DNA from: a virus
Lineage: Duplodnaviria; Caudoviricetes
Strand: one strand, 5' to 3'
Length of the DNA: 58,437 bases
Virus record (IMG/VR): IMGVR_UViG_3300027816_000115
Span: 1-58,437 of that record
Shown one piece after another: positions 9,907 to 46,331 of the stretch (position 1 is the first letter of the stretch; the number at the start of each line of letters is the position of its first letter). Below the pieces are notes generated by a model. The model saw only the letters and a program-made list of their open reading frames with translations. It was not told where the DNA came from and did not search any database. Position numbers and translations under genes: made by a program.

Positions 9907-9998
9907 GTTAAATTAAAATTCGTCACAAAAATATACTAAATATGGGACAAAATACGTAATTATTATAATATAAAAACTAAACAATTAAATTTTATTAT

Positions 9999-10571
9999 AT
10001 GGCAAAAAAAGAAGAGCAAACATTATCTTTACATGAAAAGTTGTCAAAGATTCAAGTTGAATTTAAAGCTAATAAAAGTAAGTACAATTCATTTGGAAAA
10101 TATAACTTTAGATCAGCAGAAGATATATTAGAAGCGTTAAAACCTTTTAATGAAAAGTATGGGGTTTATTTTGTAGTTAAAGAGCATGTAACATACAATG
10201 GATCATTACCTATTATGTTATCAAATGCTACAATTTATGATATTAATGGATCAGATTCTATTGAGGCAACAGCTGTTGTAGGTGTTGATTTAGTTCAAAA
10301 AGGTATGCAGACACCGCAAGCATTTGGATCAGCATCATCTTATGGTAAAAAATATGCTTTAGGAAATCTGTTATTAATTGATGATACTCAAGATGCCGAT
10401 GCAACTAATACACACGGCAAAACAACTGCTCCTGTTACAAAGAGTAAATTAGATGTAGGAGATGCGGCATTTGAAAAAGCAAAAGCATTTATTGCTAATG
10501 GTGGATCGTTAGATGCAATCAAAACAAAATACGATTTAACGGCGGCTGCATTAAAAGAATTAACACCATAA
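9999..10571 (+). CDS. ERF-family ssDNA annealing protein
   Basis: KSKYNSFGKYNFRSAEDILEALKP...QAFGSASSYGKKYALGNLLLIDD. Confidence 0.85.
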   Translation: MAKKEEQTLSLHEKLSKIQVEFKANKSKYNSFGKYNFRSAEDILEALKPFNEKYGVYFVVKEHVTYNGSLPIMLSNATIYDINGSDSIEATAVVGVDLVQKGMQTPQAFGSASSYGKKYALGNLLLIDDTQDADATNTHGKTTAPVTKSKLDVGDAAFEKAKAFIANGGSLDAIKTKYDLTAAALKELTP

Positions 10572-10575
10572 ATAT

Positions 10576-11316
10576 ATGACAGAAGAACAAATTAAAAATG
10601 TATTAAAACAACTAGAAAACGATGAGCATTATTATGGAGACCTGGGAAAAAAGTTTTTATCTAACTCCGACATCAGGTCATTATTAAAAGATCCATTAAC
10701 ATTCAAGCAACCAATAGTAGGTAATCCAAATTTAATTAAAGGCGCTTATTTTCACACATTAATATTAGAACCTGATAAACTAGAAAAGATTAAGATCATT
10801 GATACAACGACACGTAATACTACAAAGTATAAAGAACTTTCAATGGGTGAAATGTGTTTATTACAACATGAAGCAGACTCAATAGAATTATTAAGAGATG
10901 CAGTGTTAGAAAATTCAATGACACGTGATCTAATTAGAGATATAGATGTTGAGTATGAAGTACCTGGATTAATAGAATTAGAAGGCGAATGGTGGAAATT
11001 AAAAGCAGATATTAAGAATAATACGCAAGGTTTAATAGTAGATTTAAAAACAACATCTGACATAGATAAGTTCAGATACTCCGCAAAGGAATATAACTAC
11101 GACAGCCAAGCGTATATATATTCTAAGTATTTTAATTTAGATATGGTATTTATTGCTATAGATAAAACGTCAAAGAAAATTGGATTATATGATTGCTCAC
11201 CACAATTTTTAGAAAGCGGTAAATATAAAGTAGAAAAAGCAGTTGAAACATATCGACTGTTTTTTAAAGATGAAAATTTTAACTTAAAAGATTATTGTAT
11301 AACAGAAACACTTTAA
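10576..11316 (+). CDS. PD-(D/E)XK exonuclease (RecE/ExoVIII-like, DUF3799)
   Basis: LSNSDI, GAYFHTLILEP, KADI...VDLKTT, YDSQAYIY. Confidence 0.8.
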   Translation: MTEEQIKNVLKQLENDEHYYGDLGKKFLSNSDIRSLLKDPLTFKQPIVGNPNLIKGAYFHTLILEPDKLEKIKIIDTTTRNTTKYKELSMGEMCLLQHEADSIELLRDAVLENSMTRDLIRDIDVEYEVPGLIELEGEWWKLKADIKNNTQGLIVDLKTTSDIDKFRYSAKEYNYDSQAYIYSKYFNLDMVFIAIDKTSKKIGLYDCSPQFLESGKYKVEKAVETYRLFFKDENFNLKDYCITETL

Positions 11317-11321
11317 ACATT

Positions 11322-11492
11322 ATGAAACAATTAACATTAGTATTAGCAATTTTAGGAATTATTATGGTATCTTGTAGAGAATCAGCAACTGTAGAAGAAA
11401 CACCAGTAGTAGATTCAGTTGAAATAAAACAAACACCAGCTGATACATTAAAAACAGATACGGTAGTAGTAGATTCAGTAACTAATAAATAA
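11322..11492 (+). CDS. Small lipoprotein
   Basis: MKQLTLVLAILGIIMVSC lipobox; internal VVDSV repeat. Confidence 0.55.
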   Translation: MKQLTLVLAILGIIMVSCRESATVEETPVVDSVEIKQTPADTLKTDTVVVDSVTNK

Positions 11493-11498
11493 TTATAT

Positions 11499-11819
11499 AT
11501 GGCGAGTATTATTAAATGTTCAATTAACTTAAATGAAATTCCAAAACACAAAATCATCGATGGAAAAAAAGGAAAGTATCTCCCTATCACCATTACATTA
11601 AATGATGAAGTTGATCAGTTTGGTAACCAAGGACCAGTAATGGTTGAACAATCAAAAGAAGAGCGTGAATCAAAAGCTGCTAAAGTTTATTTAGGCAATG
11701 TAAAAGTTGTATGGACAAATGGCCAAAATGTTAATGCATCAACAAATGATCAACAAAAACCAGGAGCTAGACAACCGGCACAATCTTTTGCACCACAAGC
11801 AGATGATTTGCCATTTTAA
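11499..11819 (+). CDS. Putative single-stranded DNA-binding protein
   Basis: GKKGKYL OB-like core, C-terminal DDLPF, next to primase-helicase. Confidence 0.7.
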   Translation: MASIIKCSINLNEIPKHKIIDGKKGKYLPITITLNDEVDQFGNQGPVMVEQSKEERESKAAKVYLGNVKVVWTNGQNVNASTNDQQKPGARQPAQSFAPQADDLPF

Positions 11820-11894
11820 ACTTATAGATTTAAATTAAAAAATAAACTTTAAGCTTATAAATTTAAAAATAATTAAACAATCTAATTAAATACA

Positions 11895-13628
11895 ATGCAA
11901 GTAAACAGAACCGAAATAAATGGATTCCAAATAGATACTTTTAATCAGCATGGATTAGAAGAGAAAACCCAAGGCATTTGTCCATTATGTTCACACAATA
12001 GAAAAGGTGAACACAAAAAAGCAAAATGTGCATCTTATGATTGGGAAACAGGAATTGGTACTTGCCACAATTGTAATAAGTCATTTCAATTACATACTTA
12101 TAAGAGAAAAGGCGAAACGCAAAAAGTATATGTAAAGCCAGATAGAGACGCTGTTCTCGACTCTGGCTTAACTTATCCTTTATCAGATAAGGTTGTAGAA
12201 TGGTTTGCAACAAGAGGCATATCAAAAAACACATTAGAAGAATTAAAAGTTACAGACGGTACAGAGTTCATGCCGCAGACAAGCAAGATTGAAAACGTAA
12301 TAAAGTTTAATTACTTTATTGGCGATGATCTTGTTAATATAAAGTATAGAGATGGTCGTAAACATTTTAAACTTTATAAAGGAGCAGAAAAAGTATTTTA
12401 CAACATCAACAGTATAGTCGGTTGGGATTATTGTATATTAGTTGAGGGTGAGATGGATGTCTTAGCTCTTGCTGAAGCAGGAATAACAAACGCTATTTCA
12501 GTACCTAATGGTGCGACACTACATACAAATAACTTAGAATACCTAGATAATTGTATAGATTATTTTGAAGACAAAAACAGAATAATCATTGCAGTAGATT
12601 CAGATGAAGCTGGTCAAGCGTTACAATCTGAATTGATTAGAAGGTTAGGATCTGAAATTTGTTATATAGCAACGTTTGAAGATTGTAAAGATGCAAACGA
12701 ATATTTATTAAAGTATGGTAAAGAAGCTTTAGCTCAAAGAATTGGTAAAGCTAAACCTGTTCCATTAGAAAATGTTACAACATTTAAAGATATAGAAGAT
12801 GAGATTACGGACTTTGTTAGGAATGGTTTCAAGCCTGGTTTCCAAGTTGGGTTACCTAATTTCGATGATATATTCAGCACTTATACTGGCCAGTTTATTA
12901 CTGTTACTGGTGTGCCTAGTTCGGGCAAGTCTGATTTCGTTGATCAAATGGTTGTAGGTTATAATAAAAACTATGGCTGGAAAACAGCTTATGCTTCGCC
13001 AGAAAATACACCAACTTATTTACATGCTCATAAGTTAATGCGTAAAGTCTGGGAAGGTATGCCTACAGAAGCAGATATTTATTCAGAAAAATGGAATCAA
13101 GTAGCAGATCATGTTAATGATAACTTTTTCTTTATTGATATGGAACGATATACATTAGACGCTGTTCTTAAAAAAGCAGGAGAGCTTGTAAAAAGAAAAG
13201 GTATTAAATGCTTAGTTATAGATCCATTTAATAAAGTTAGAGACACAAATGCTGAGTCTGCTGATGTCAATGCTTATACATTAGAATATCTAACTAAGAT
13301 TGAAATATTTGCTAAAAAATACGATGTGCTTGTTATGATCGTTGCTCATCCTACTAAAATGTACAAAGATAAAGATGGCAAAATTGAAGAACCAACTATG
13401 TACAATATTAAAGGCGGTGGTGAATGGTATGACGCATCATATCATGGATTATTAGTTCATAGAGATTATGAAAACAAAACTGTTAAAGTAAAAGTATTAA
13501 AAGTTAAGTTTCAAAATCTTGGTGAGAATGGTGCTGAATGTCATTTTGTTTGGGAACCTAAATCTGGTTGCTTTATACCACATATACCAATAGATGCTTC
13601 CAACGATAAATTACCTTGGGAAATATAA
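11895..13628 (+). CDS. T7 gp4/Twinkle-like DNA primase-helicase
   Basis: Zn finger CPLC..CHNC, TOPRIM VEGEMD/DSDEAG/KDANE, Walker A GVPSSGKS, VAHPTK. Confidence 0.92.
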   Translation: MQVNRTEINGFQIDTFNQHGLEEKTQGICPLCSHNRKGEHKKAKCASYDWETGIGTCHNCNKSFQLHTYKRKGETQKVYVKPDRDAVLDSGLTYPLSDKVVEWFATRGISKNTLEELKVTDGTEFMPQTSKIENVIKFNYFIGDDLVNIKYRDGRKHFKLYKGAEKVFYNINSIVGWDYCILVEGEMDVLALAEAGITNAISVPNGATLHTNNLEYLDNCIDYFEDKNRIIIAVDSDEAGQALQSELIRRLGSEICYIATFEDCKDANEYLLKYGKEALAQRIGKAKPVPLENVTTFKDIEDEITDFVRNGFKPGFQVGLPNFDDIFSTYTGQFITVTGVPSSGKSDFVDQMVVGYNKNYGWKTAYASPENTPTYLHAHKLMRKVWEGMPTEADIYSEKWNQVADHVNDNFFFIDMERYTLDAVLKKAGELVKRKGIKCLVIDPFNKVRDTNAESADVNAYTLEYLTKIEIFAKKYDVLVMIVAHPTKMYKDKDGKIEEPTMYNIKGGGEWYDASYHGLLVHRDYENKTVKVKVLKVKFQNLGENGAECHFVWEPKSGCFIPHIPIDASNDKLPWEI

Positions 13629-13978
13629 TGGGTAGTGGATTTAAAAAAGGAAAAGCAATAGACATGGGTAATTATGTAGCTAAAAGTAGAGAACAAGATG
13701 CTTATGTGTGGTGTATACACAACAATATATTAATTGCCCCAAAAGCTAAAAGTAATACTGAATGGTATATATGTATTACTTTAAATGGTAAAACAACACA
13801 AAGTCCATTAGCTTATGAGAAGATTGAAATATGGAAAGAGATTTACAAGTTTTATACATATTATTATGATAAGCACAGCGGTGTGAAAGTTATAAAAGAA
13901 GTTCAACCTAAGAAATATATAAAAGAAGAACCAATAAAACCTAAACCAAAACAAATAATAAATGAACAACTATTTTAA
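13628..13978 (+). CDS. Hypothetical protein
   Basis: ORF track; start at the TAATG overlap. Confidence 0.6.
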   Translation: MGSGFKKGKAIDMGNYVAKSREQDAYVWCIHNNILIAPKAKSNTEWYICITLNGKTTQSPLAYEKIEIWKEIYKFYTYYYDKHSGVKVIKEVQPKKYIKEEPIKPKPKQIINEQLF

Positions 13979-14747
13979 TACAGAGACATACGAAGACCAA
14001 TACAAAAAAATACTATGGAAGTGTCTTAACAATGGTGTAAATCGCGAGGATCGAACCGGTGTTGGCTGCAAATCTATATTCAATGCAAGTTTAAGTATTG
14101 ATCTTAATAATGGCTTTCCGTTAATAACAGGTAGAAAAATGTTTCAAAAAACTTTTGATACAGAGTTTGAATGGTTTATGAATGGTGAAACTAATATACA
14201 AAGATTTAGAGATGCTGGTGTAAAAATATGGGATGCTTGGGCAGATGAGAATGGCGATCTTGGTCCAGTATATGGACATCAAATGCGTAATTTTAACGAT
14301 CAAAATATAGATCAGATGCAAATGCTTATTAAAGGATTAATTGACAATCCGGATAGCCGTAGACACATTATAAGTTTATGGAATCCTGCACAATTAGATC
14401 AAATGCAATTACCTCCTTGTTATTTGTATTTTCAATTCTTTGTAGAACGTGATAGACTTAATATGTTTGTTGTTCAAAGATCTGGAGATATATTTTTAGG
14501 TATACCGTATGATGTAGCATTGTTTTCAAAAATACTTTTGTATGTTGCAGAAAAAACGAACTTAAAAGCGAATTGTATTGACATTCAAATTGTGGACGCC
14601 CATGTGTACAACAATCAACATGATGCTATACACAAATATCTTTGTCAAGAAACTTTTCGAGCTCCTGGCTATATTTACAAAAACGGAGCATTATCCTTAA
14701 TAAATTATAAACACGGCCCAGTAATTACAGCAAAAGTGGCCATTTAA
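13962..14747 (+). CDS. thyA: Thymidylate synthase
   Basis: DRTGVG, DLGPVYG, PDSRRH, LPPC, QRSGD.FLG.PY, DAHVY. Confidence 0.92.
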   Translation: MNNYFNTETYEDQYKKILWKCLNNGVNREDRTGVGCKSIFNASLSIDLNNGFPLITGRKMFQKTFDTEFEWFMNGETNIQRFRDAGVKIWDAWADENGDLGPVYGHQMRNFNDQNIDQMQMLIKGLIDNPDSRRHIISLWNPAQLDQMQLPPCYLYFQFFVERDRLNMFVVQRSGDIFLGIPYDVALFSKILLYVAEKTNLKANCIDIQIVDAHVYNNQHDAIHKYLCQETFRAPGYIYKNGALSLINYKHGPVITAKVAI

Positions 14748-14759
14748 TCTAAATTATGT

Positions 14760-15011
14760 ATGGAACAAGAAACACTTGAAGAAGCTGGTGTTGCTTATGC
14801 GAAAACAGTAAATCAAAACCACACTTCTCATATGTTAGGATTTTACAATGGTGCTAAATGGCAACAAGAAAGAATGTATAGTGAGGAAGATATGAAATTT
14901 GCTTATGAACAAGGCGTAAGATTGGCTTTAATTAGCCAATCTACTTTAGCGCTACATAAAGGAGAGTTTCCAACACCTAAAGAATGGTTTGAACAATTTA
15001 AAAACAAATAA
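14760..15011 (+). CDS. Hypothetical protein (ETLEEA...GAKWQQERMYSEED family)
   Basis: ORF track. Confidence 0.6.
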   Translation: MEQETLEEAGVAYAKTVNQNHTSHMLGFYNGAKWQQERMYSEEDMKFAYEQGVRLALISQSTLALHKGEFPTPKEWFEQFKNK

Positions 15012-15015
15012 GATT

Positions 15016-15357
15016 ATGAAAAAAGATTTTACTAAATGTAATTGGGATAATTGTAATAACGATAGAGTTTATAAAACTAGCATCTATTGCAAAGAGCATA
15101 ATAATCTTTATAGTTTATCTAGGAAATTTGGCATTAGTAAAGATGAAGTAATAATGTTAAGAAATAAAAAATATTGTGATATTTGCGAAAATCCATTTTT
15201 AGATAGTAAAATTTATATTGATCATTGCCATACAAATGGAAATGTTAGAGGAGTATTGTGTATACACTGTAATATTTTATTAGGCCATTCATTTGATAAT
15301 ACTGATATTTTAAACAAAGCAATAACTTATTTAAACAAAAATGAAAGAAAATACTGA
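15016..15357 (+). CDS. Recombination endonuclease VII-like (His-Me) nuclease
   Basis: CDIC...IDHCHTNGNVRGVLCIHCNILLG. Confidence 0.8.
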   Translation: MKKDFTKCNWDNCNNDRVYKTSIYCKEHNNLYSLSRKFGISKDEVIMLRNKKYCDICENPFLDSKIYIDHCHTNGNVRGVLCIHCNILLGHSFDNTDILNKAITYLNKNERKY

Positions 15358-16264
15358 AATTTCACCTCCTGCCTATTATATTTATCACATTCCTGGCAAA
15401 AAAATTGGAGTTACACGTAATCTTAATAAGAGAGTAGAGTTTGCTCAAGGATATACTCCTAGTGAATATGAAGTGCTTGAAACTAGTAATAACATACATT
15501 ATGTTTCAAGTAGAGAACGAGAGTTACAAAGATTATACGGTTACAAAGTTGATCGAGATTCCTATAAACAAGTAGTAGAAAATAATAATAAACTAAAAAA
15601 CCGACAAAAAATGAAATTAAATATCACTGAACAAACAGTTACATTCCCATGCCCGTCAAATAAACTTAAGGGACAGCTTTTAGACGCATTAGGGCTTGAA
15701 TTTGAAACACAATTTGGCAGATATGTACTAACCAATGAATTAATAGATTGGATTGATCAGAACGCTTCAGTTTCAATGTTTAATAATAATAGAAGTTTCG
15801 TATATAATAAGGCATTACATAATGCTTTTAATACTTCTAAGCCAAACAAAAAAGAAGAATCATTTAATACTGATATACGTAGACAATTAAATGAGATGAT
15901 TACTGAAGCTTTATCATCAAATATGATTGCACAAGAAAGAGCGTCTAATAAAAATAGTAATGAAGTTACAAATGTATACGACTTAATTAGAAGTTGGGCA
16001 AATGATAAAGGTATTTATAAATCAGGTGATTCTAAAACACAATATGTTAAACTTATGGAAGAATCTGGTGAATTAGCAAGAGCAATCTTAAAGCAAGACA
16101 AACCAGAAATCAAAGATGCAATTGGCGATATGATTGTTGTATTAACTAATCTTGCATATTTAGAAGGTTTTGATGTTGAGGATTGTGTTACATCTGCTTA
16201 CGATGTTATTAAGAATAGAAAAGGTAAAATGGAAAACGGAACTTTTATGAAATCTACATTATAA
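15341..16264 (+). CDS. GIY-YIG-like N-terminus fused to MazG-like NTP pyrophosphohydrolase
   Basis: YYIYHIPGKKIGVTRNLNKR; C-terminal KLMEESGELARA...DAIGDMIVVL. Confidence 0.7.
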   Translation: MKENTEISPPAYYIYHIPGKKIGVTRNLNKRVEFAQGYTPSEYEVLETSNNIHYVSSRERELQRLYGYKVDRDSYKQVVENNNKLKNRQKMKLNITEQTVTFPCPSNKLKGQLLDALGLEFETQFGRYVLTNELIDWIDQNASVSMFNNNRSFVYNKALHNAFNTSKPNKKEESFNTDIRRQLNEMITEALSSNMIAQERASNKNSNEVTNVYDLIRSWANDKGIYKSGDSKTQYVKLMEESGELARAILKQDKPEIKDAIGDMIVVLTNLAYLEGFDVEDCVTSAYDVIKNRKGKMENGTFMKSTL

Positions 16265-16265
16265 T

Positions 16266-16712
16266 ATGAACAAACAAGAAATTGAATTTAGAGACCCAGT
16301 TGTACAACAAGTTGTAAATAAGTTTGTATCAAGATCTGATGTTGGCTTTGCTAAATATGGTAAAACTATGATTGATGACAAATCTGATATTAAAGCTTGG
16401 CTTAATCATGTCCAAGAAGAGTTAATGGATGCAACGTTATATATTCAAAGGCTAAAAATTGAAATTGAAGATGTATTAGAAGATTTATGGATTGAGCGTT
16501 CTAAAGCAAATTTTATTGATGTTGTAGATCCTGAAATTGTTTCTACATTTAAAGGATTTGAAATTCTTGCTGAGCCTAAAAAAAAGAAAAAGAAAAAAAA
16601 GAAAAAAGAAGCTTATCAAGTAGGTAGAGGCGATACATATTCTTTTACTATAGATGACGATATTGAATGGAATCGCTGTTGTACTAATTGTTGTATGAAT
16701 GAAAAAATCTAG
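16266..16712 (+). CDS. Hypothetical helical protein (MazG/dNTPase-like motif) with poly-Lys tract
   Basis: GFAKYG...WLNHVQEELMDATLY; K10 run. Confidence 0.55.
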   Translation: MNKQEIEFRDPVVQQVVNKFVSRSDVGFAKYGKTMIDDKSDIKAWLNHVQEELMDATLYIQRLKIEIEDVLEDLWIERSKANFIDVVDPEIVSTFKGFEILAEPKKKKKKKKKKEAYQVGRGDTYSFTIDDDIEWNRCCTNCCMNEKI

Positions 16713-17151
16713 AAAAAAAGGTCCAGTAAAATCAAAAAAAATAATATATGATGGTATCACTTTTGCTTCTGGACTTGAAAAGTATATGTACAAAGCTTTA
16801 AAAGAAGCTGGTATAGATTTTGAATACGAGGGGGTAACGTTTGAATTGTTGCCCTCTTTTATCTTTGAAAATGTTTGTATGGAACGGCAATCAAATGGTA
16901 AAGGAGATTTCATGAATAGAGGGTTAAAAAAGATATTGAATCTTAAATATACACCAGATTTTGTTGGTGATAACTTTATAATTGAAACTAAAGGTAGAGC
17001 TAATGAATCTTTTCCATTGCGATGGAAACTATTTAAAAAATGGATGATGGATAATAAAGATTATCGGCCATTATATAAACCACAAAATCAATCGGAATGT
17101 GATACTACTGTAAAATTAATATTAAATAACACCAAACAAAAAAAGAAATGA
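16699..17151 (+). CDS. T7 endonuclease I-like Holliday junction resolvase
   Basis: FASGLE, YTPDF, IIETKG. Confidence 0.8.
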   Translation: MKKSRKKGPVKSKKIIYDGITFASGLEKYMYKALKEAGIDFEYEGVTFELLPSFIFENVCMERQSNGKGDFMNRGLKKILNLKYTPDFVGDNFIIETKGRANESFPLRWKLFKKWMMDNKDYRPLYKPQNQSECDTTVKLILNNTKQKKK

Positions 17152-17297
17152 ATAAATTTAGTGAAAAAAGTTGGTCAATATCAGTTGGCATATACACAGG
17201 CATTTTATTAGGATTTAGAAGTTACGTTGAAAAAAGTTACACTACATACGTAATATATTTACCATTTATAGACATTGCATTAGAAATTGATAATTAA
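17148..17297 (+). CDS. Small hypothetical protein (49 aa)
   Basis: Hand-read; ATGA overlap; fills the gap. Confidence 0.5.
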   Translation: MNKFSEKSWSISVGIYTGILLGFRSYVEKSYTTYVIYLPFIDIALEIDN

Positions 17298-17305
17298 AAA
17301 TAAAT

Positions 17306-19174
17306 ATGAGCCTTAGTTTAGATAAACAAATCTTAAGTTCTATAACCGTATATACAAAATACGCAAAATATGTTCCGTCAAAAGAACGAAGAGAAACGTG
17401 GGAAGAATTAGTAACAAGGAATATGGATATGCACAAATCCAAATTTCCACAAATGAAAGAACAAATTGAGCAAATATACAAAGACTTTGTATTTACTAAA
17501 AAGGTTTTACCTTCGATGCGAAGCTTACAGTTTGGTGGTAAAGCTATTGAGCTTAATAATGCTCGTATTTATAACTGTGCTTTTTTACCTGTTGATAATA
17601 TTCGTAGCTTTTCCGAGACTATGTTTTTATTACTTGGCGGAACTGGTGTTGGATATTCGGTACAGAATCATCATATTGATAAATTACCTGAAATAAGAAA
17701 ACCTAATTATGATCGTAAAAAACGTTATGTCGTTCAAGACAGTATTATTGGCTGGGCCGATGCGGTTAAAACATTATTCAAGTCATATACGGGAGAGTTA
17801 ACTTCACATATTGAATTTGATCTTTCTGATATACGTCAAAAAGGAGCATTACTAGTTACAGCAGGTGGTAAAGCGCCAGGACCGGAGCCATTAAGATTAG
17901 CATTGGTTAAAATTGAAGCTATCTTAAGAGAAAAAGAAGATAGATCAAAACTAACAGATATTGAGTGCCATGATATTCAATGCTATATTGCTGATGCGGT
18001 TTTAGCTGGAGGTATTCGTAGAGCAGCAATGATTTCATTATTTGATCTTGATAGCACAGCAATGTTAAATTGTAAAGCTGGTAATTGGTGGGAAGAAAAT
18101 CCACAAAGAGGTAGAGCTAATAATTCTGTTGTTTTATTACGTCATAAGATTGACAAGAAAACATTTGATAAAGTATGGGAAAGAATTGAAGCATCAGGAT
18201 CTGGTGAACCTGGTATTTATCTTACCAACGACAAAGATTGGGGAACTAATCCTTGTTGTGAAATTGCTTTAAGACCATATCAGTTTTGTAATTTAACAGA
18301 AATTAATATGGCGGATATTGATAGTCAAGAAGAATTTAATGCAAGAGCATCTGCTGCGGCATTCTTGGGAACACTACAAGCATCGTATTCAGACTTTCAT
18401 TACTTACGTGATATATGGAGAAAGAATACAGAAAAAGACGCATTATTAGGAGTGTCCATGACTGGCATTGCCTCTAAATCAAACTTAGAATTAAATTATG
18501 AAGAAGCAGCAAAAGTTGTTAAAACTACTAATAATGAAATTGCTAGTCGCCTTGGTATTAATCCTGCTGCTCGTACTACAGCCGTCAAACCAGCAGGAAC
18601 TACTAGTCTTGTTCTTGGCACTTCTAGCGGTATTCACGCTTGGCACAATGATTATTACATTAGAAGAATGCGATTAGGTAAGAATGAAGCAATCTATTCT
18701 TATCTTGCAATAAATCATCCAGAATTGCTTGAAGATGAATATTTTAATCCAACATTACAATCAGTTATTTCAGTTCCTCAGAAGGCTCCAGATGGCGCTA
18801 TAACGCGTCATGAATCCACGTTAGATCTATTAGAAAGGGTAAAACTTATTTCTAAAGATTGGGTTAAAACAGGACATGATAAAGGTAATAATACTCATAA
18901 TGTATCTTGTACTGTATCAGTAAGGGATGATGAATGGAAAATTATTGGTGAATGGATGTGGGCAAACAAAGAATATTACAACGGATTATCTGTCTTGCCT
19001 TATAATGGCGGTACATACAAGCAAACTCCGTTTGAAGATTGTACAAAAGAGGTATATGAGCAAATGATGTCTACTTTAAAAAACGTTGATTTATCAAAAG
19101 TGATTGAAATACAAGATGATACTAACTTTGTTGATTCAGCAGCCTGTGGAGGAGGGAATTGTGAGATTGTATAG
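17306..19174 (+). CDS. nrdJ: Class II (adenosylcobalamin) ribonucleotide reductase
   Basis: YNCAF, GGIRRAA, TNPCCEI, FCNLTEI, VKPAGT, C-terminal ACGGGNCEI; no NrdB partner. Confidence 0.88.
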   Translation: MSLSLDKQILSSITVYTKYAKYVPSKERRETWEELVTRNMDMHKSKFPQMKEQIEQIYKDFVFTKKVLPSMRSLQFGGKAIELNNARIYNCAFLPVDNIRSFSETMFLLLGGTGVGYSVQNHHIDKLPEIRKPNYDRKKRYVVQDSIIGWADAVKTLFKSYTGELTSHIEFDLSDIRQKGALLVTAGGKAPGPEPLRLALVKIEAILREKEDRSKLTDIECHDIQCYIADAVLAGGIRRAAMISLFDLDSTAMLNCKAGNWWEENPQRGRANNSVVLLRHKIDKKTFDKVWERIEASGSGEPGIYLTNDKDWGTNPCCEIALRPYQFCNLTEINMADIDSQEEFNARASAAAFLGTLQASYSDFHYLRDIWRKNTEKDALLGVSMTGIASKSNLELNYEEAAKVVKTTNNEIASRLGINPAARTTAVKPAGTTSLVLGTSSGIHAWHNDYYIRRMRLGKNEAIYSYLAINHPELLEDEYFNPTLQSVISVPQKAPDGAITRHESTLDLLERVKLISKDWVKTGHDKGNNTHNVSCTVSVRDDEWKIIGEWMWANKEYYNGLSVLPYNGGTYKQTPFEDCTKEVYEQMMSTLKNVDLSKVIEIQDDTNFVDSAACGGGNCEIV

Positions 19175-19222
19175 TTACCTTGGAACAAGATGTTGGATTT
19201 ACACTTTATACTTAAATAAATT

Positions 19223-19414
19223 ATGACGCCAAAAGAAAAAGCATTGTATCTACTAAATTTATCAACTTTAACAAATTTTGAAGAAGCAAAAAAAATAGCA
19301 TTAATGATAGTTAATGAGATATTAAATGAATTTCCAAATGGATTTAATAATAATTTTGAAATGAAAAGAAAACTTTATTGGCAAGAAGTAAAACAAGAAA
19401 CAGAAAAACTATGA
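19223..19414 (+). CDS. MTPKEKA...EVKQETEKL family small protein, copy 2
   Basis: Paralog of 6908..7120. Confidence 0.65.
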   Translation: MTPKEKALYLLNLSTLTNFEEAKKIALMIVNEILNEFPNGFNNNFEMKRKLYWQEVKQETEKL

Positions 19415-19623
19415 AAGAGCAAACATTAGTTGAAATGAAAAATAAGGTTGACGCAATCACAAGAGTGCTTCAACAAATGATTTACGAACAAGATAATTTG
19501 CGAACATTATCTATAGGCATGATGGAAACAATAAAACTAATGCCTGGTTATGATGATGCTATTAAGCAGATTACCGAAAAAACAAAGGAGCAAGTAGAAG
19601 ATGCTCCAAGGTTAGAAGTTTAG
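19411..19623 (+). CDS. Hypothetical protein
   Basis: ORF track; start at the ATGA overlap. Confidence 0.6.
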   Translation: MKEQTLVEMKNKVDAITRVLQQMIYEQDNLRTLSIGMMETIKLMPGYDDAIKQITEKTKEQVEDAPRLEV

Positions 19624-19640
19624 TTTATTTTATTAATCAG

Positions 19641-19677
19641 AAAAGGGGACCGCGAATTATCACGAGTCCCCTTTTTT
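19641..19677. terminator. Bidirectional intrinsic terminator between the two arms
   Basis: AAAAGGGGAC...GTCCCCTTTTTT at the convergence point. Confidence 0.85.
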
Positions 19678-19723
19678 CGGTTAAGGAATATTTAGGTATG
19701 GTGCCTATTTCTATTCATTCCTT

Positions 19724-22700
19724 TTAATCACCGCCAATTTTTCTTTTCTTTTTCTTAGGAAAAACACCTGTTTCATAATAAATTCCTCTCTCCTCCGGCG
19801 TCATAGCGTCTAAAATTTTATCCTTAGCACTTCCTTTTTTTGATTTTCTTTCAGCCTCTTCCATGTAAAAAATTTCTCGTTCTTCTGGTGTCATTTTATC
19901 TAAAGCATCCTCCCTTTCTTTTTTGTTTTTAGCTTTAGTTTCTATTGATTTTATAATACCTTCTTCTTTTCTTTTTACTTTAGCAGCGGCTTTAATTAAT
20001 TCATTTTCTTCATTCTTAACATTTAATTCCCATTCTTTCCATCCTAGCATTAAAGCAGCTCTTTGTAATTTTGTATTACGAGAATCCAAAGCTTCTGAAA
20101 CATTATCTATTTTTTCAACAAGACGATCTAATGGTACATTTGTAGTTGCTACAGCAATGTTACCAACTATTGAATAATTAGGACTAAGATTAAGTCTACC
20201 ATCTCTTGTAATTTCCCATCCTCTTTCCTCTATTACATCTTTCTCAAACTTTTTAATTCTATGTACACCATATAATTTTCTAGCTTTTGAACTTATAGGA
20301 GGAGATATGCCGGCAACAGCTAATATTGTATAAGCATGATCGGCAAACATTTCTCTTTGCTCTTGTTTATTATATTCCATTACGGCATTTTTAATAGTAG
20401 ATATTAATGCACCTGTTATACCAGACCCTCTTAATACTGTATCAGCCATTCCGTTTAGAATATTAATAGTTTTATCTTCTTGCTTTTTCTTTAACTTGTC
20501 ATACTCAGCTCTTTGTTCCTTTGACATTTTAGCTAAAACTTCTTCTTCCTCATCTTCAAAAGGTAAAAACAATGCCGATTGCAAAGCCGAGAATATAAAG
20601 TTTTGTAATGCTCCATAATATAATATTTTTGACATATTAGTTTTCCAGTCTCCACGCTTATTAACTAAGTCTAAAGTAGCTTTCTTTATCAATCTATTAT
20701 ATTGTAAAGGAGTATTAGCAAAAGCTAATACAAGACGTCCTAATGAGGTTGTTTGCTGTTTTGATATATACAATGGATCAGCGGACTGCATGGATTGATC
20801 AGAGATCATTGAAAAATCTAACCAAGCTTTATCTTCTGCTTCTTTTTTTGTATTTATCAAATTGCCATCTTCATCTGCTTGTTTTAAATAAGTATTAACT
20901 CTATTTCTATAAAATGCAGCACCACCAATTGCAATAGAAAAACTATCTGCAGCTTGTGTAGGTGTAAACCCTATTTTTTGTAGATATGAAAGAATACCTC
21001 TAGCTTTATTTTTAGCACTATTAGCAGCATTAGCAATCTCAGCTTGTGTAACATCTGCTTTTAATCCAGCTCTTCGTTCTCTCATTTTATCTGAGTTAAT
21101 AATCATAGCGAAATCTGTCCAATATTGCTTTTGATTTGCAAATGCTTTTGCCGCCATTAAAGGATTATTATCATTCCAGTTTAAATAGTTGATTGAAGAT
21201 ATTGTTTGCAATATAGCGGAACGAACATTAAAGAACATGATTGCAGCAGTAGATCCGTTTATCCAGTTCATCCAACGATTAGTTAGAGCGTCAGTGCCTT
21301 CAGGTCTATTCTTACCATTCTTCATTCTATATAAAGCATCCTCAAGAGCTATCCTTACATTCGTTCCATATATAGCTTGTATCTTGTTTAAATTTTCAGT
21401 CGAGAAAATAGCATTGGCATTTTCTATAAATTCAGCCAACCATTGTTTTCTACCATCACCTTCTGTAATATTATGTAGATCAGAAATAATAGTTTCGCTA
21501 TCCCATGTATCAGAAGGTTCCATCCAGCCACCGTCTTGTCTACCTGCTATAGATAAGGCTTCGGCAAAAGAAAGTAAATTGGGATCGGTTTTAACAAGAT
21601 ATACTAATTTATTTTTATCTTTCCTGTTTAATCCCGGTATTTCTATATTATTCTTATTCCATAAATATACCCTTATAGCTTGATCATAAGTAAACTGCTT
21701 ATCAGGAGTAAGTTTTTCTAATTTAGATTTAATATCCGGAAATTCAGATAACAATGCTTTGTATTCTTTTTTTATAGATTGCCTAACAGAATCTAAGGCA
21801 TTTATTCCTTTTACATAAGGTATAACTAAATTTTTATCAAAAAATTGCTGGTCTAATTCTCCTTGTTTGCCTTTGCCTGAAAACATGTAGGTTGTTAATC
21901 CCCTAAAGTCATCTGCAGATGGCGGTACGAAAAATGATAAGTTTCTTACTTTTGCTCCTTTTCTTTTTGCAACAACATCAGAAAATTTCTCATAAGAAGG
22001 TATGGCTTTATTGCGTTCAAGCATATCATTAAATTCGTAGTCTAAAGACTTACTAAATTTAGGTCTTGCTTTCCATTTAGTATCATTATTAATCCATTCA
22101 TTTAATTGTTTTTCTGCAGATTTAATAGTCTCTAAATTAAGAGCATTATTTACCGCTGCCATTAAAGGTCCACCTTCGTTTTCACGATCCTCAATTATAT
22201 CAAAAGCATAATCAACAGAACTAACCATTCCGTCTATTGTTTTATCTTCAAGAATACCCCACCATTCCTCTATAGATTTATTAAGATCATTTAATACATC
22301 AAAAGAAGTTTCCGCATCTATTCTTCTAATATTATTTGCAGTAATATAGTCAGATACTACCGTAATACCTTTGTTATCTTTGTTAAAGGAGTTTAAATTA
22401 TTTTCTAAAGACTTAGAGTGCATGCTGTTTCTTTTTCTTTGCATAACAGCATTGACCTTGTCGTTTATATCCTTTAAACTTAATTTAGAAGCTATTTTAT
22501 CAATATCCTTAGCTGCTTTTTTATTTATATAAAAATAAATTCTAGGTCTTAAATAACCATTCTTTTCTATTTTTAATTCAACTTGCGCAGTAATAATATC
22601 GGTATCAGTTATTTCATATTTTTCTAAAAAATCAGCTCCAAAATAATCTGTTAAAGAAGTTCCAATTACTAATAAATCGTTACTAAAAGCTTTATTATTA

Positions 22701-25700
22701 TTGATATCTTTTATACTATCAATAGATAAATCTATTTTAAATATAGTTTTTTTACCTTTTAATAAAGATTTCAACCCCTCAACATCTTTTATTTTATATC
22801 CACCGCTTTCTGTCTCATTTGTTAAATAATCTCCAATTTGTTTAAATAAATTTGTTTCTTTAAAATCATTATATTCTTCTATTATTTTTTTACCCCAATC
22901 GGTTCCAGAATATTTAGTTTTTACAACATTAAGCGTAGCGGATGTCATTCTTGCAAATATATCTTTTTTTATTTCAACGATAACTTTTAAAGCGTTATCT
23001 GTTTTAATATTTTTTAAACTTTTGCCTTCGCTTATTAAAACGTCTGGAACATAATTATTGTTACCACCAAATAGTTTATAAATATAATTTTTTGATAAAC
23101 GACTTTTTATTATTCCGCCTATAAATTTTTCATGTTTATAATGAGCTATTTTATCTAATACGTCATTATATTTTGTAAATAGCTCTTCTAAGTCGTCGTC
23201 TGTAAATCCATTTGTGATTAATTTATTATATAAAGCTTTAAATGGATTATATTCTCCTTTTCTTTCTATCATTGCTGCATTAAAACTGCTTTTTTCTATA
23301 AGATAACTTATTCCATCTGTAAGTTCTTTTTCTGTTAAAGAAAATTTAATATTGCCGCGCTCCGCTAGTCTATTAAATTCTTCTACTATTATTCTTTCAG
23401 TAATAGCACCTTTTAACTCTTGATTTCTGTTTAATGCTTCAGCTATAATACCATCATTAGCAATATCGTCAGATATAATATCAAATGAAACCTCTTCCGC
23501 TAATACTTTAGCCAAAGCTTCTTTTCTTCCTCTAATTATATTACCCGTCTCTAAGTCTATAATAGATGATAAAAATTCTGTAGTTGACACATTCTTATTA
23601 ACTTCAGGCAATCTTCTAACCATTTCATGGCCAGCTGTTCTACCTGCTAAATCAACGTCTACAGATTCTCTGTCTATTTTTTTACCAACCCATTCTGGAT
23701 AATTAAGCCAACGGCCATTTACTCTTTTTTGTATTGCAAAAGGCATACCTCCTAATACTTTATTCCCTTGATCTTTACCCATTAACCAAGTAGTCGTCAT
23801 ATTTTCAAGAATGGTTTTTTTGTTAACAATTAACCAATTTTGTAACTCTTGATTTTCTTTACCGCCCATTGCTTTCTTAATATCAATGTCAGCCTGCTTA
23901 CCCATTTCATCTCTTATTTCTGCAATTAGAGGAACAACAGTTTTATTCAAAGATGTTTTTTCATTAATCTTTGATTTCAATGTTCTTACAACAGGTAATA
24001 TTTTAGTCTGAATATTTTCAATAACATCGGGACTAAATACGCCTGACTCCAATATGTTCTGGAAACGTTTTCTTTCAGGCAATGACGGTTTAGTTACTTC
24101 AACATCCTCGTTAGCTAACTTGGTCATTTCAGTAATATCCTCAGTAAACACAACGTTCGCAACTTCGCCACTTTTTAAAGCAGCTCTCATACGGTTTATA
24201 TATTGTGCATTTATATATCCATATAAACTGTTGTTTCTAGATGGATCAAACTTAGCAATATACGGTATCATCGATGTTCTAACATAACTAGTCATCTCGT
24301 CCATATCAAAACCGTCTAATCCCCCTTTATCTTTATTTGTAAAATCTATAACTGTCCCTTTATTGGTTCTCCAGTTTCTTGATTTTACTTTAACCATTTT
24401 ATCAAGTTCACTATATATAGTTGGATTACCAGGATCAAAACCTTTTGGGTCATTACCAATAGCATCAAGTTTAGCTTTAGCTTTAGCCGCTACTTCACTT
24501 ATTTCTATATCTTCTTTTGATTTTGGCTCTTTAGGTTTTGCTTCTTTTTTCTCTGCTTTTTTAACCTCTGGCTCTTTACTTAAACCAGTTTTTTGTTCTT
24601 CATATTCCTTACGTTTTAATTCGGCTTCCTCTTTTTCAAGAGCAATCATTTTTCTTTCGTAAGTATCATAATCAATTTCACCGTCATTAAGTTGTTCATC
24701 TAAAGCATCCATTCTTTCTTCAATAGACTTAGAATATTTTACAGTTGTTGATATCGGTCTTCCGTCTAATAATTCTTTAGCGCGAGTGCTTATTCTCCCT
24801 TTACTAGCATTTGATTGGTAATCTTTTAGAAAATCATAAAAATCTCTACCTTCACTAAACTTAGCATTAGAAAACCCTAGTTTTCTTAAAACTTTTAGAA
24901 TTGGTCTAGAAGCTCTTCTTAGTACATCTTTAACTTGATTTTTACCACCAATTTGCCCATAAGCAATAGCATCAATAAAAGCAGTAAAATACTCCTCTAA
25001 ATTATCATCACTTAATTTACCAGTATCTTTGTCTAAATAATTTTCATCAATACGTTTTTGAATTATAGCTCTTTCCTTTGCAGTTAATACAGATAAAAAT
25101 CCATTAACTACTTTTTTTCTTTCCATAGGGTCACTAAGAGCTTTAGCTAATACCTTATGTAAAAATTCATGCTGAGCAACATTGATTGCTCCTTTTGCAG
25201 AAGCCATACTAAGATTGATAACAGATTGGCCATTTGATAATTCAAATCCATCTGATTTTGCTCCTTCTTCTACTTCGGCATTTATTTGATCATCAGATTT
25301 TATATATAAATCCGGGTCTACAGCCGTATCTGCAGGTAATTCGCCGGATGATATTTTTTTATTAATATCATCTATTTGTTGCTTAATAATATTATTTTCT
25401 GCAACTAACCATTCTTTGTAAGCCTTCTTAAGTCCCTCAATAGTTTCAAATACGGCAATAGAACCTTGATTACCTATTTTATTAGATATTTCCTCTTCGC
25501 CTAATGTAGATATAATTTTTTTAATATTATCAACACTGGTATTAATTATAGCTTTGTTGCTTATTATTTTATTTATTTGAGCATATTGACCAGTTAATAA
25601 ATATTCTCTCTTTTCTTCTAATTTATTAAATTCATTTTTTAATTCAGCAGCTTTATCTTTTTTTATTTCTGGCGAAAAGTTAGATTGAGATAATTCTATA

Positions 25701-27865
25701 TATGAATTTCTTAAATCTTGTTGTTTTCTATTTATATCTAAAACAGCGGTCATGTCTTCCGTTGACATATCATAGACTCTATCCTCCGAATTTTCAATAA
25801 CTTTTATTGACTCATTCGATAATGTTTTTATTTCAGATATTATTTCTTCACTTTCCTTAACAGACAGTTTTGCATTTGTTTGCAATTCTGTTTGCAAAAA
25901 ATCTATACGATCCATTATACTCTTACTAGCAGTCATTTCTTGAGCTGTAGCATAATTTTTTAATTCTTTTGCTACAAGAAGAGAAACTCCTCCACCCATT
26001 TGGGTTCCACCCCCCATAAACGCTCCTCCCGCATAAGCTTCTTTAAACCTTTTAGATCTTTCTGATGGAGCTACAGTTTTTCCAAGTAAATGCTCGTCTA
26101 ACAGCATATTTAATCCCTCTGTCAATACTTCAGTACCACCCTCAATTTGACTTTCAATACCAACTGTTCCAATGGTTTTTAAACTTGATTTAATAAAGTT
26201 TTCTTTAAATATTTGTCTGGACTGAGTATCAACAGAAGACATGACTTTTTTCATATTGTCAAACATTCTTAATGTACCTAGTTTTTCAGGTATAAATTCT
26301 GAAAGTGCAAATCCATAACCAGCTAATAATTTAGTACCTAAGTCGTAGTTAGACCCAAGTTCATCTTCCATTTCTTGGATTTTTTGTCCCCCTGATCCTA
26401 ATGACACAGCAGCGGCTCCGTAGGATCCTCCGAAATACATTGCAGCATATACTGGAATTTGTTCAAATAATAAACCTGAAAAATATTTACCAAAGTCAGC
26501 GAAGGAGTTAACATCATCAAAAGATGTGGTTTTTACATTTTCTTTAAATTTATTACCAACTCTTATATTAGCTTCACCAACTTCACTTAATAAATTGCCT
26601 ATACCATCTGTTATTCCTAAAAATGACTCTCCGTAATCAATAGTATCACCTATTATCTTTGCTGATCCGCCAAGAATATTAATACTAGTACCAACAAACC
26701 TAGAAATACTAGATTCAATATCATTATAGTTGTATTTAAAATATTCTAATTTTTCCTCATCACTTTTTATTTTATCAATATAATTTGGAAAATTTTCATA
26801 TATTCCTTCTAAACTAGTTTTTGCTTTGTTAGCTGAATTTCTAAGGTTCTCGTATGTAGCTATTTCATCATTAGTAACTTTTCCCTCATTATAGAAGGTT
26901 TTAAATTTTTTAGCATATTCTTCAAATCCGGCTAATTCATTACTATAGGTTTTAGCCAATATGGTTTGTTGACGGGCTAAATCAGATGATACTAATACGT
27001 CTTGTATTGCTCTAATTTTAAGTTTTTCTTTTTGAATAGCAACTTCAGGCATCCATGTGGGTTGACTGTCCCAGTACTCTTCAGCGGCTTTGCCTTCTTG
27101 TATTAATATTTTTTCTTTATAAAATATTTCTTTAGCAAGAGCGTCAACATCTTCAGCACTTATTTTCTGACCTTTTTTCTTTCTTTTTGATAATATGCCT
27201 ATAGCTTGCTTTTTTTCTTTCTCTAATGGCTTAAATGGGGATATAGTCAAATCTATTTCAGCACCAAGAGCTTGACCTACCATAGAAACTGGTCCTAATA
27301 CAATATCATTAAGCCAATTTTTACTGCCTTCTCTTATATAATCTATAGCCTGTGAATCGTTTATTTCGTCATTATATAATTTATCAATTAAACCATAATC
27401 AATTGGTTTACTTTTTATATAATTAATTACTTCAGATTCTTTACTTTCTAGTTCTTCCCATTCCTGTTTAGCAGGCGTTTTAGGAAGATTAGCTAGCGTT
27501 TTATTAAACTCTTCTGCTGGATTTAAAATAGATTGCAATTGATCTTTTTGTCCAAAAGGAAAATTTGCATTTTGTTGATCTATAAAATTTGAAACTTCCT
27601 CAGTGCTTTTCTTTATATTAGCTGCTTGAACTTTTTTAGCTTGTTTAAATTTGCCAAGAAAATCACCTTTAGGCTCTTTTTCCTCTTGATTACTCCAAGG
27701 ATATGTTTTTTTAGTTTGTTTTGTAACTGTTGAAGTTGTAGAAGATTTTCTTTTTAAACCTTTACTTTTTATAATGGCACTAGCCGAGGTTTTTTGCTCG
27801 GCTGCCATTTTATTTATTTGATCTTCTGTATATATTTGCCCAGAGGCATCAGTGTATTCAAACAT
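19724..27865 (-). CDS. Giant (2713 aa) internal virion/ejection polyvalent protein: zincin peptidase, sigma-region-2-like and PD-(D/E)XK-like modules
   Basis: Last gene of the structural operon; Gly-rich hydrophobic helices; HEFLH at aa 899; KFDPSR at aa 1205; PD..EIK at aa 1607-1633. Confidence 0.75.
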   Translation of the reverse strand: MFEYTDASGQIYTEDQINKMAAEQKTSASAIIKSKGLKRKSSTTSTVTKQTKKTYPWSNQEEKEPKGDFLGKFKQAKKVQAANIKKSTEEVSNFIDQQNANFPFGQKDQLQSILNPAEEFNKTLANLPKTPAKQEWEELESKESEVINYIKSKPIDYGLIDKLYNDEINDSQAIDYIREGSKNWLNDIVLGPVSMVGQALGAEIDLTISPFKPLEKEKKQAIGILSKRKKKGQKISAEDVDALAKEIFYKEKILIQEGKAAEEYWDSQPTWMPEVAIQKEKLKIRAIQDVLVSSDLARQQTILAKTYSNELAGFEEYAKKFKTFYNEGKVTNDEIATYENLRNSANKAKTSLEGIYENFPNYIDKIKSDEEKLEYFKYNYNDIESSISRFVGTSINILGGSAKIIGDTIDYGESFLGITDGIGNLLSEVGEANIRVGNKFKENVKTTSFDDVNSFADFGKYFSGLLFEQIPVYAAMYFGGSYGAAAVSLGSGGQKIQEMEDELGSNYDLGTKLLAGYGFALSEFIPEKLGTLRMFDNMKKVMSSVDTQSRQIFKENFIKSSLKTIGTVGIESQIEGGTEVLTEGLNMLLDEHLLGKTVAPSERSKRFKEAYAGGAFMGGGTQMGGGVSLLVAKELKNYATAQEMTASKSIMDRIDFLQTELQTNAKLSVKESEEIISEIKTLSNESIKVIENSEDRVYDMSTEDMTAVLDINRKQQDLRNSYIELSQSNFSPEIKKDKAAELKNEFNKLEEKREYLLTGQYAQINKIISNKAIINTSVDNIKKIISTLGEEEISNKIGNQGSIAVFETIEGLKKAYKEWLVAENNIIKQQIDDINKKISSGELPADTAVDPDLYIKSDDQINAEVEEGAKSDGFELSNGQSVINLSMASAKGAINVAQHEFLHKVLAKALSDPMERKKVVNGFLSVLTAKERAIIQKRIDENYLDKDTGKLSDDNLEEYFTAFIDAIAYGQIGGKNQVKDVLRRASRPILKVLRKLGFSNAKFSEGRDFYDFLKDYQSNASKGRISTRAKELLDGRPISTTVKYSKSIEERMDALDEQLNDGEIDYDTYERKMIALEKEEAELKRKEYEEQKTGLSKEPEVKKAEKKEAKPKEPKSKEDIEISEVAAKAKAKLDAIGNDPKGFDPGNPTIYSELDKMVKVKSRNWRTNKGTVIDFTNKDKGGLDGFDMDEMTSYVRTSMIPYIAKFDPSRNNSLYGYINAQYINRMRAALKSGEVANVVFTEDITEMTKLANEDVEVTKPSLPERKRFQNILESGVFSPDVIENIQTKILPVVRTLKSKINEKTSLNKTVVPLIAEIRDEMGKQADIDIKKAMGGKENQELQNWLIVNKKTILENMTTTWLMGKDQGNKVLGGMPFAIQKRVNGRWLNYPEWVGKKIDRESVDVDLAGRTAGHEMVRRLPEVNKNVSTTEFLSSIIDLETGNIIRGRKEALAKVLAEEVSFDIISDDIANDGIIAEALNRNQELKGAITERIIVEEFNRLAERGNIKFSLTEKELTDGISYLIEKSSFNAAMIERKGEYNPFKALYNKLITNGFTDDDLEELFTKYNDVLDKIAHYKHEKFIGGIIKSRLSKNYIYKLFGGNNNYVPDVLISEGKSLKNIKTDNALKVIVEIKKDIFARMTSATLNVVKTKYSGTDWGKKIIEEYNDFKETNLFKQIGDYLTNETESGGYKIKDVEGLKSLLKGKKTIFKIDLSIDSIKDINNNKAFSNDLLVIGTSLTDYFGADFLEKYEITDTDIITAQVELKIEKNGYLRPRIYFYINKKAAKDIDKIASKLSLKDINDKVNAVMQRKRNSMHSKSLENNLNSFNKDNKGITVVSDYITANNIRRIDAETSFDVLNDLNKSIEEWWGILEDKTIDGMVSSVDYAFDIIEDRENEGGPLMAAVNNALNLETIKSAEKQLNEWINNDTKWKARPKFSKSLDYEFNDMLERNKAIPSYEKFSDVVAKRKGAKVRNLSFFVPPSADDFRGLTTYMFSGKGKQGELDQQFFDKNLVIPYVKGINALDSVRQSIKKEYKALLSEFPDIKSKLEKLTPDKQFTYDQAIRVYLWNKNNIEIPGLNRKDKNKLVYLVKTDPNLLSFAEALSIAGRQDGGWMEPSDTWDSETIISDLHNITEGDGRKQWLAEFIENANAIFSTENLNKIQAIYGTNVRIALEDALYRMKNGKNRPEGTDALTNRWMNWINGSTAAIMFFNVRSAILQTISSINYLNWNDNNPLMAAKAFANQKQYWTDFAMIINSDKMRERRAGLKADVTQAEIANAANSAKNKARGILSYLQKIGFTPTQAADSFSIAIGGAAFYRNRVNTYLKQADEDGNLINTKKEAEDKAWLDFSMISDQSMQSADPLYISKQQTTSLGRLVLAFANTPLQYNRLIKKATLDLVNKRGDWKTNMSKILYYGALQNFIFSALQSALFLPFEDEEEEVLAKMSKEQRAEYDKLKKKQEDKTINILNGMADTVLRGSGITGALISTIKNAVMEYNKQEQREMFADHAYTILAVAGISPPISSKARKLYGVHRIKKFEKDVIEERGWEITRDGRLNLSPNYSIVGNIAVATTNVPLDRLVEKIDNVSEALDSRNTKLQRAALMLGWKEWELNVKNEENELIKAAAKVKRKEEGIIKSIETKAKNKKEREDALDKMTPEEREIFYMEEAERKSKKGSAKDKILDAMTPEERGIYYETGVFPKKKKRKIGGD

Positions 27866-46059: not shown

Positions 46060-46331
46060 TATTTAGACCTCCCTTCTGCAAATCCTTTAAAAACTTTTAC
46101 TTCTGTAGTTTTTTCAGACTCCTCTATCATTCGCTCTTCTTCTTGTATTCTATTAAGGATTTCAAGGGCATCAAAAATAGCTAGCTTTTTTGTAGCTGCT
46201 GCGTTCTTTAATCTATCAGCAGATATATCATCTCCACTATCTACAATTTTTTCTTCAGCTACTTTTATTAATTCCTCAACTGCTTTTTGCCCAGCTCGGA
46301 TTATATTCAGCTTCGTTTCCTTTATATTCAT
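46059..46331 (-). CDS. Putative terminase small subunit
   Basis: Small helical ORF coupled directly upstream of TerL. Confidence 0.5.
   Translation of the reverse strand: MNIKETKLNIIRAGQKAVEELIKVAEEKIVDSGDDISADRLKNAAATKKLAIFDALEILNRIQEEERMIEESEKTTEVKVFKGFAEGRSK

Follow-up and report, generated by a model that had tools for sequence, protein, structure and literature searches.

The last gene of the virion-structure operon in an uncultured, podovirus-like phage of marine type encodes a giant protein that may be a polyprotein, cut at short recurring motifs by a metallopeptidase of its own. The phage is represented by IMG/VR record IMGVR_UViG_3300027816_000115, and this whole stretch of 58,437 bases (91% complete according to CheckV) is referred to here as the window. 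The host probably belongs to the Flavobacteriia. The gene is one uninterrupted open reading frame (ORF) of 2,713 amino acids (aa) at 19724-27865 on the minus strand, and all features of the protein given below are on that strand. In the proposed architecture its product is a virion-carried 'polyvalent' protein of five parts. The first would be a virion domain at the N-terminus, fused to a metallopeptidase of zincin type (aa 1 to ~1044), and the second a conserved core that contains a stretch resembling a sigma factor (aa ~1045-1508). Two cassettes would follow, one a PD-(D/E)xK nuclease (aa ~1509-1817) and the other small and helical (aa ~1818-1937), and after them a conserved helical domain at the C-terminus (aa ~1938-2713). 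These parts would be joined by short flexible linkers with the sequence [VI]-K-[FY]-S-[KL]-[ST]-[LI]. The protein's own zincin may cut at the linkers, in the capsid or after ejection, which would yield about five separately acting products from one gene. The cassettes between the motifs may in turn be exchanged among phages. We put the probability that the protein is cut at the motifs by its own zincin at about one half.

That zincins process giant polyvalent phage proteins has been a hypothesis since 2017, one without sites to test. In the family described here there are four precise places where a cut may fall, one catalytic residue that can be mutated, and fragments whose sizes are clearly predicted. 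Should the motif prove to be a cleavage code, the borders of uncharacterised effector cassettes could be read straight from metagenomes. To the known theme of the polyvalent proteins, the cassette architecture and the junction motif add new detail.

Junction motifs in flexible linkers

An earlier note on this DNA had reported a HEFLH motif with a downstream EEYF, followed by four K[FY]S(KS)-type motifs, in the giant ORF. The ORF and each of these elements are where that note placed them. Motif 1 is KYSKS (aa 1043-1047; 24725..24739). Motif 2 is KFSLT (aa 1507-1511; 23333..23347), at the end of the longer string ERGN[IV]K[FY]S. Motif 3 is HSKSL (aa 1816-1820; 22406..22420), conserved as [FYH]SKSLENN, and motif 4 is KFSKS (aa 1936-1940; 22046..22060), which is conserved too. 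The protein has three matches to K[FY]S[KL][ST], with 0.04 expected, and three to [FYH]SK[ST][LI], with 0.03 expected. None of 2,000 shuffles reached either count. Among the 87 window ORFs of at least 60 aa (19,306 aa in total), the motif is found in the giant ORF and in one other, at 16485-16913 on the minus strand, where it is a chance copy. That ORF and another at 21189-21683 on the plus strand are antisense to real genes, and are probably not genes themselves.

Motif-like strings were not accepted wherever they occur. The bare tripeptide K[FY]S is present six times in the protein. Its copy at aa 1651 was rejected as a junction, and the string ASKSI at aa 646 was rejected as a fifth site. 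The former lies inside the confidently folded nuclease domain and the latter within a confident predicted helix; because both are in confident structure, they are taken as chance copies. Literature occurrences of KFSKS, KYSKS and KFSKT were also considered. Among the matches listed none concerned phages and several concerned tRNA synthetases, a link that was rejected because the motifs here occupy linkers between unrelated domains.

The motifs are conserved in the family. A word-indexed search found 787 relatives among 7,999 candidates scored, and an exhaustive phmmer search with aa 860-1520 gave 498 cluster representatives (50% identity) at E <= 1e-3, nearly all of them 2,000-3,300 aa long. 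A coverage map of 118 relatives has conserved blocks at aa ~880-1510 and ~1930-2650, with the N-terminus and aa ~1510-1900 variable. All four motifs are kept in relatives, including distant ones from 74 viral loci, and the family consensus is [VI]-K-[FY]-S-[KL]-[ST]-[LIM]. The earlier note had asked whether the motifs are conserved while the modules between them vary, and this is the pattern found. In 264 relatives, site 2 has the strict motif in 194 and the loose motif in 253; the corresponding counts at site 4 are 181 and 232. Site 1 is alignable in 170 of the 264, as the strict motif in 74, a loose one in 77 and no motif in 19. As for single positions, S1045 of motif 1 is invariant in a 55-sequence alignment, and K1507 of motif 2 is also invariant.

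Where do the motifs fall in the predicted structure? Two AlphaFold models bear on this. Model 1 covers aa 640-1520 (881 residues, built from 44 sequences) with a mean predicted local distance difference test score (pLDDT) of 76, and model 2 has 1,200 residues. Residues with pLDDT below 50 number 96 of 881 in model 1 and 102 of 1,200 in model 2, and all four motifs overlap such segments. In model 1 the segment is 400-407 for site 1 (residues 404-408), whose block 401-410 averages 45, and 864-881 for site 2 (residues 868-872), which is inside it. In model 2 the segment is 1-9 for site 2 (residues 8-12), 318-332 for site 3 (residues 317-321) and a coil at 433-440 for site 4 (residues 437-441). 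Sites 1, 2 and 4 are coil. The motifs are therefore in low-confidence linkers and not inside folded domains, a placement on which the earlier note had let its idea stand or fall.

Cassettes between the motifs

The module between motifs 2 and 3 (aa 1512-1815; 22421..23332) is a predicted PD-(D/E)xK nuclease-fold cassette. It carries the E...D...ExK signature: across 47 modules, with identities as low as 26%, residues E1579, D1608, E1631 and K1633 are kept at >=97%. It also resembles the HhaI endonuclease. The kept signature and this resemblance agree with the description of aa 1507-1816 as nuclease-like in the earlier note. Between motifs 3 and 4 is a small helical-bundle cassette (aa 1821-1935; 22061..22405), which has generic helical-bundle matches only. 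A VIA search with model 2 returned a list filled by this bundle (aa 1831-1935).

The borders of homology point to exchange of such modules. When the protein was compared with 285 relatives by BLAST, 230 of 906 internal endpoints of high-scoring segment pairs (HSPs) fell within 8 aa of a motif, that is 25% as against 2.5% if endpoints were uniform. Sites 2 and 4 account for nearly all of them, with 101 HSP ends at the former and 108 HSP starts at the latter within the same distance. When the variable region was split at motifs, 59 module families emerged, and they occur in many orders. This splitting also cut at aa 1651, and module families 1 and 5 are consequently one module in the present protein. 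A given module family always begins right after K|[FY]S, whether many different, unrelated modules precede it or it follows site 2 directly. Modules between motifs thus recombine in many orders, and the suggestion in the earlier note that they are swappable cassettes is supported by these comparisons.

One cassette of the relatives has a recognisable identity. A Zeta_toxin/AAA_33 P-loop kinase cassette of ~201 aa is present in relatives P0210, P0216 and P0219 (Pfam E 1.9e-13). It starts at K|FS[RKS][ST], about 12 residues ahead of the Walker A motif, and ends at site 4. A junction motif stands on each side of it, and the C-terminal domain follows immediately. The family therefore combines unrelated effector-type domains in one polypeptide: the zincin signature and the PD-(D/E)xK module here, and the P-loop kinase cassette in relatives. 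The kinase cassette was also seen in 8 among 120 short matches listed. In a Pfam search of six relatives with other cassettes, the kinase was the sole match. A further cassette of ~176 aa (module family 4, in relatives such as P0091, P0097 and P0144) begins '...GISVFDFDDT...'. The string FDFDDT resembles the DxDxT motif of HAD phosphatases. A HAD-like reading was nevertheless set aside, as this motif is all that points to it and Pfam gave no match.

The zincin signature and proposed self-cleavage

The candidate protease is a putative zincin (gluzincin-like) metallopeptidase domain at aa ~800-1040 (24746..25468), recognised by its HExxH and Glu signature and by the model. HEFLH (aa 899-903; 25157..25171) is the sole HExxH in the protein. 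E958 (24992..24994), part of EEYF at aa 957-960, is the candidate third zinc ligand. HExxH is present in 112 of the 112 relatives that align there (118 in the set), E958 is present in all that align there, and the 55-sequence alignment shows no variation at H899, E900, H903 and E958. Exactly one HExxH is found in 286 of 287 non-redundant giants, and the remaining one has more. In model 1 the order of elements is strands, then the HExxH helix (257-270), then a later helix (319-329) that bears E958. Weak hhalign matches agree with this: phage N4 gp50 C1 has the HExxH stretch in register (E 0.041), and phi14:2 gp65 has both the HExxH stretch and the Glu helix in register (E 0.034).

The clusters nearest to aa 795-1040 in the ESM Atlas carry LPD23, LPD1/5, ART-PolyVal and MuF_C (score 0.94), which is a lead and not a test. 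In BFVD there was one real match, to an uncharacterised uncultured-virus protein (E 4.7e-8), and a 'PolyVal ADP-ribosyltransferase' appeared at E 1.1e-3. A predicted complex of the zincin region (aa 795-1040) with a site-4 peptide (aa 1920-1960) scored 0.14, below the mark of 0.32, and counts neither way.

A number of observations have to be set against this scheme. One group concerns the protease. Fold searches with model 1 (Foldseek PDB, VIA wide and a second VIA look) gave coiled-coil and helical matches to residues 1-131 alone and no zincin. Pfam had no zincin match in the giant protein or in 44 relatives, and the hidden Markov models (HMMs) MPTase-PolyVal (PF18818) and LPD23 (PF18838) had no match in any of five genomes at E <= 10. 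The zincin of the earlier note therefore stands as an invariant HExxH and E958, whereas the fold and HMM searches did not confirm it. A second group concerns the sites. Site 3 is assigned as the end of a helix by DSSP in model 2. Sites 1 and 3 are not homology breakpoints, with 6 and 2 endpoints nearby, and no motif marks the place where the variable N-terminus joins the zincin (aa ~860-880, with 80 HSP starts). Family-wide, 10.8% of breakpoints are near internal motifs as against a null of 4.8%, a modest enrichment of about twofold among relatives that are not independent. Of 30 shorter relatives examined, not one begins at a motif, and natural gene fission at the motifs was thus not found; short relatives start instead at internal Met residues within conserved regions. 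A third group comes from other proteins. In Elemovirus MT497017, the 3,694-aa protein at 9386-20470 shares the N-terminal domain alone with the giant ORF, and it has one HExxH (aa 1543) but no K[FY]SK motifs. Finally, in the text available from Iyer et al. (2017; PMC5512222), zincin peptidases are proposed to process polyvalent proteins, but ArdC and TraC1, which have such peptidases, are transferred full length. The peptidase domain may therefore have another role. As for Elemovirus, its giant protein may use a different junction signal, or none.

What if the motifs are never cut? They could be connectors that travel with the cassettes, acting as a hinge, a helix-capping linker or an unfolding and threading signal for passage through the tail, and the single chain would then be the active form. 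We regard this as a possible alternative, to be held tentatively. At sites 1, 2 and 4 a helix begins 1-3 residues past the motif, and Ser and Thr are common as helix caps. The lack of gene fission at the motifs would also suit connectors, as would the uncut transfer of ArdC and TraC1 in the available part of PMC5512222. However, a plain linker needs no conserved Lys, no aromatic residue and no invariant Ser across roughly 30-90% identity. Moreover, other low-confidence linkers of the protein, at aa 1094-1121 and 1244-1266, are without the motif.

Another possibility is that the motifs are cut by a different protease, either of the host or an unrecognised one of the phage, and that the HExxH domain acts against the host, for example on its peptidoglycan or its proteins. 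As far as the accessible text goes, a wall-degrading role has been proposed for the metallopeptidase of phi24B gp47 (bioRxiv 10.64898/2026.04.10.717836), and the same option is listed for gp65 (bioRxiv 10.1101/2020.03.07.982082). Nevertheless, a separate protease seems unlikely. An HK97-type prohead protease (S78) was not found in the 91%-complete record, and no prohead protease was recognised there at all, although the S77 search lacked a working control. Apart from the giant ORF, no real ORF of the window has the motif, and the zincin signature is retained in nearly every giant, as described above.

A last alternative looks to the DNA. Over 39 sites the conserved Ser is encoded by TCN 21 times and by AGY 18 times, and this nearly equal use indicates selection on the protein, not on a DNA word. 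It is accordingly most improbable that the motif merely reflects a recombination signal in the DNA that serves cassette exchange, even though breakpoints cluster at sites 2 and 4 and AAA TTT codons are common at the K-F positions, because Lys codons are split between AAA and AAG just as Ser codons are between TCN and AGY, Phe alternates with Tyr, the amino acids are retained in relatives down to about 30% identity, and a conserved nucleotide word at the junctions irrespective of reading frame was not seen.

The proposed cleavage of the giant protein by its own zincin can be compared with several known systems. The polyvalent proteins (PMC5512222) are one of them: in the text available, a giant phage protein combines unrelated enzymatic domains with one HExxH peptidase, and processing is proposed. 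The present ORF differs from them in having no Pfam MPTase-PolyVal or LPD23 match. It also differs in that a defined junction motif marks its borders, whereas none was found described in that part of the paper. The crAss-like phages offer a second comparison. The portion seen of a preprint on them (bioRxiv 10.1101/2020.03.07.982082) describes fused virion polyproteins that are 'likely cleaved', and gp65 carries a zincin. The gp65-gp67 proteins of Cellulophaga phage phi14:2 and their fused forms are virion-packaged giants of Bacteroidota phages, as is proposed here. However, the DFDxD RNA-polymerase motif of the crAss-like proteins is absent from the giant ORF protein, the genome here is about 60 kb and not 100 kb, and by tblastn the giant protein resembles isolated phages (Elemovirus and Tenacibaculum phages) only in its N-terminal domain.

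Phage N4 gp50 (PMC13434306), a giant virion protein that is ejected, likewise contains an HExxH domain with a large helical domain after it. The giant ORF differs in lacking an RNA-polymerase module, and its C-terminal domain has no match to that of gp50. Cutting of gp50 was not found reported in the available text of that paper. A further relative in kind is phi24B gp47 (bioRxiv 10.64898/2026.04.10.717836), a 2,811-aa podophage virion protein with LPD domains and a MuF-C metallopeptidase that is a proposed ejection protein. Its domain families are different, and neither processing nor a junction motif was found described in the sections available.

The bacterial MARTX toxins are giant chains in which an internal cysteine protease cuts between exchangeable effector domains after delivery. 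Their likeness to the giant ORF is one of mechanism by analogy alone, and no homology is claimed.

The conserved core, the two ends and the genome setting

The core module (aa 1048-1506; 23348..24724) consists of a coiled coil, a K/E-rich linker and then the most conserved domain of the family. A stretch within it (aa ~1180-1227; 24185..24328) is similar to sigma-70 region 2 by weak matches in the same register. In the ESM Atlas the stretch is near Sigma70_r2 clusters (score 0.88), the PDB sigma factor 8b3z_A matches it weakly (E 0.027), and residues 41-81 of Escherichia coli RpoE align with it in register, also weakly (E 0.36). Pfam Sigma70_r2 gave sub-threshold matches at the homologous place in the giant ORFs of 2 of 10 relatives (E 0.008 and 0.001). 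For sigma-70 region 4 there was a single weak hhalign match, aa 1277-1314 against RpoE 154-189 (E 0.2). The earlier note had called aa 1043-1507 sigma-like. What holds is a set of weak but convergent region-2 matches, from which the core may carry a region-2-like stretch; on the other side, Pfam Sigma70_r2 has no match in this giant ORF itself.

Could the core be a working sigma factor? In the boldest version of the scheme, the protein would be a self-processing effector polyprotein with the cleavage code [VI]K[FY]S[KL][ST]. The shared piece would be injected to serve as a sigma-like factor, turning the RNA polymerase of the host towards the phage DNA as it enters, and the cassettes (nuclease, kinase and others) would be interchangeable weapons. 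We consider this version doubtful. If it were true, phages would have in this protein their own equivalent of MARTX-type toxins. A sigma-like module brought in by the virion would represent a new strategy of takeover, and early transcription would have a third way to start, in addition to virion RNA polymerases and promoters for host sigma-70. A separate sigma gene is also encoded by the phage, at 9142-9906 on the plus strand (PHROG 351), with Pfam Sigma70_r2 at 9247-9396 (E 7.2e-6). The sigma-like core would therefore be a second sigma-type element in the phage.

At the other end of the zincin, the N-terminal domain (aa 155-779; 25529..27403) also occurs in Flavobacterium Elemovirus phages, as part of their 3,694-aa 'structural protein', with 26-27% identity and E values of 1e-34 to 1e-52 (tblastn and BLASTP). 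It is present in about half of the 118 relatives. In a tblastn search of the whole giant protein against 50,697 phage records, aa 116-738 alone matched, in Elemovirus and two Tenacibaculum phages, and the core and C-terminal domains had no match in these records. Upstream of the giant gene in its operon, on the same strand, are the terminase, portal, virion and tail genes. This operon context, together with a domain common to a protein annotated as structural, suggests that the giant protein is virion-carried and may be delivered to the host.

The C-terminal domain (aa 1941-2713; 19727..22045) is all-helical in the model, conserved, and ends in a K/E-rich tail. The earlier note had called it an ejection domain. 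The searches gave that label no support, as the domain has no informative fold or HMM match, and N4 gp50 C2 does not match it. More generally, Pfam and PHROGs recognised nothing in the giant protein, and PDB sequence searches with the protein alone or with the alignment gave no result. The protein has two Lys/Glu-rich low-complexity stretches. The one at aa 1094-1121 is an internal disordered linker (pLDDT 30-37), and the one at aa 2650-2713 is the C-terminal tail, which ends KKKKRKIGGD.

The window also contains a GroEL-like chaperonin gene at 50932-52494 on the minus strand (PHROG 5725, E 8.8e-134). A possible Cpn10-like partner is encoded at 46276-46887 on the same strand (Pfam Cpn10 E 0.0022, below the cut-off). 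These phage proteins might help the giant protein to fold. Convergent with the giant gene is a replication and nucleotide-metabolism block at 11895-19174 on the plus strand, with genes for a primase-helicase, thymidylate synthase, a MazG-like pyrophosphatase and ribonucleotide reductase.

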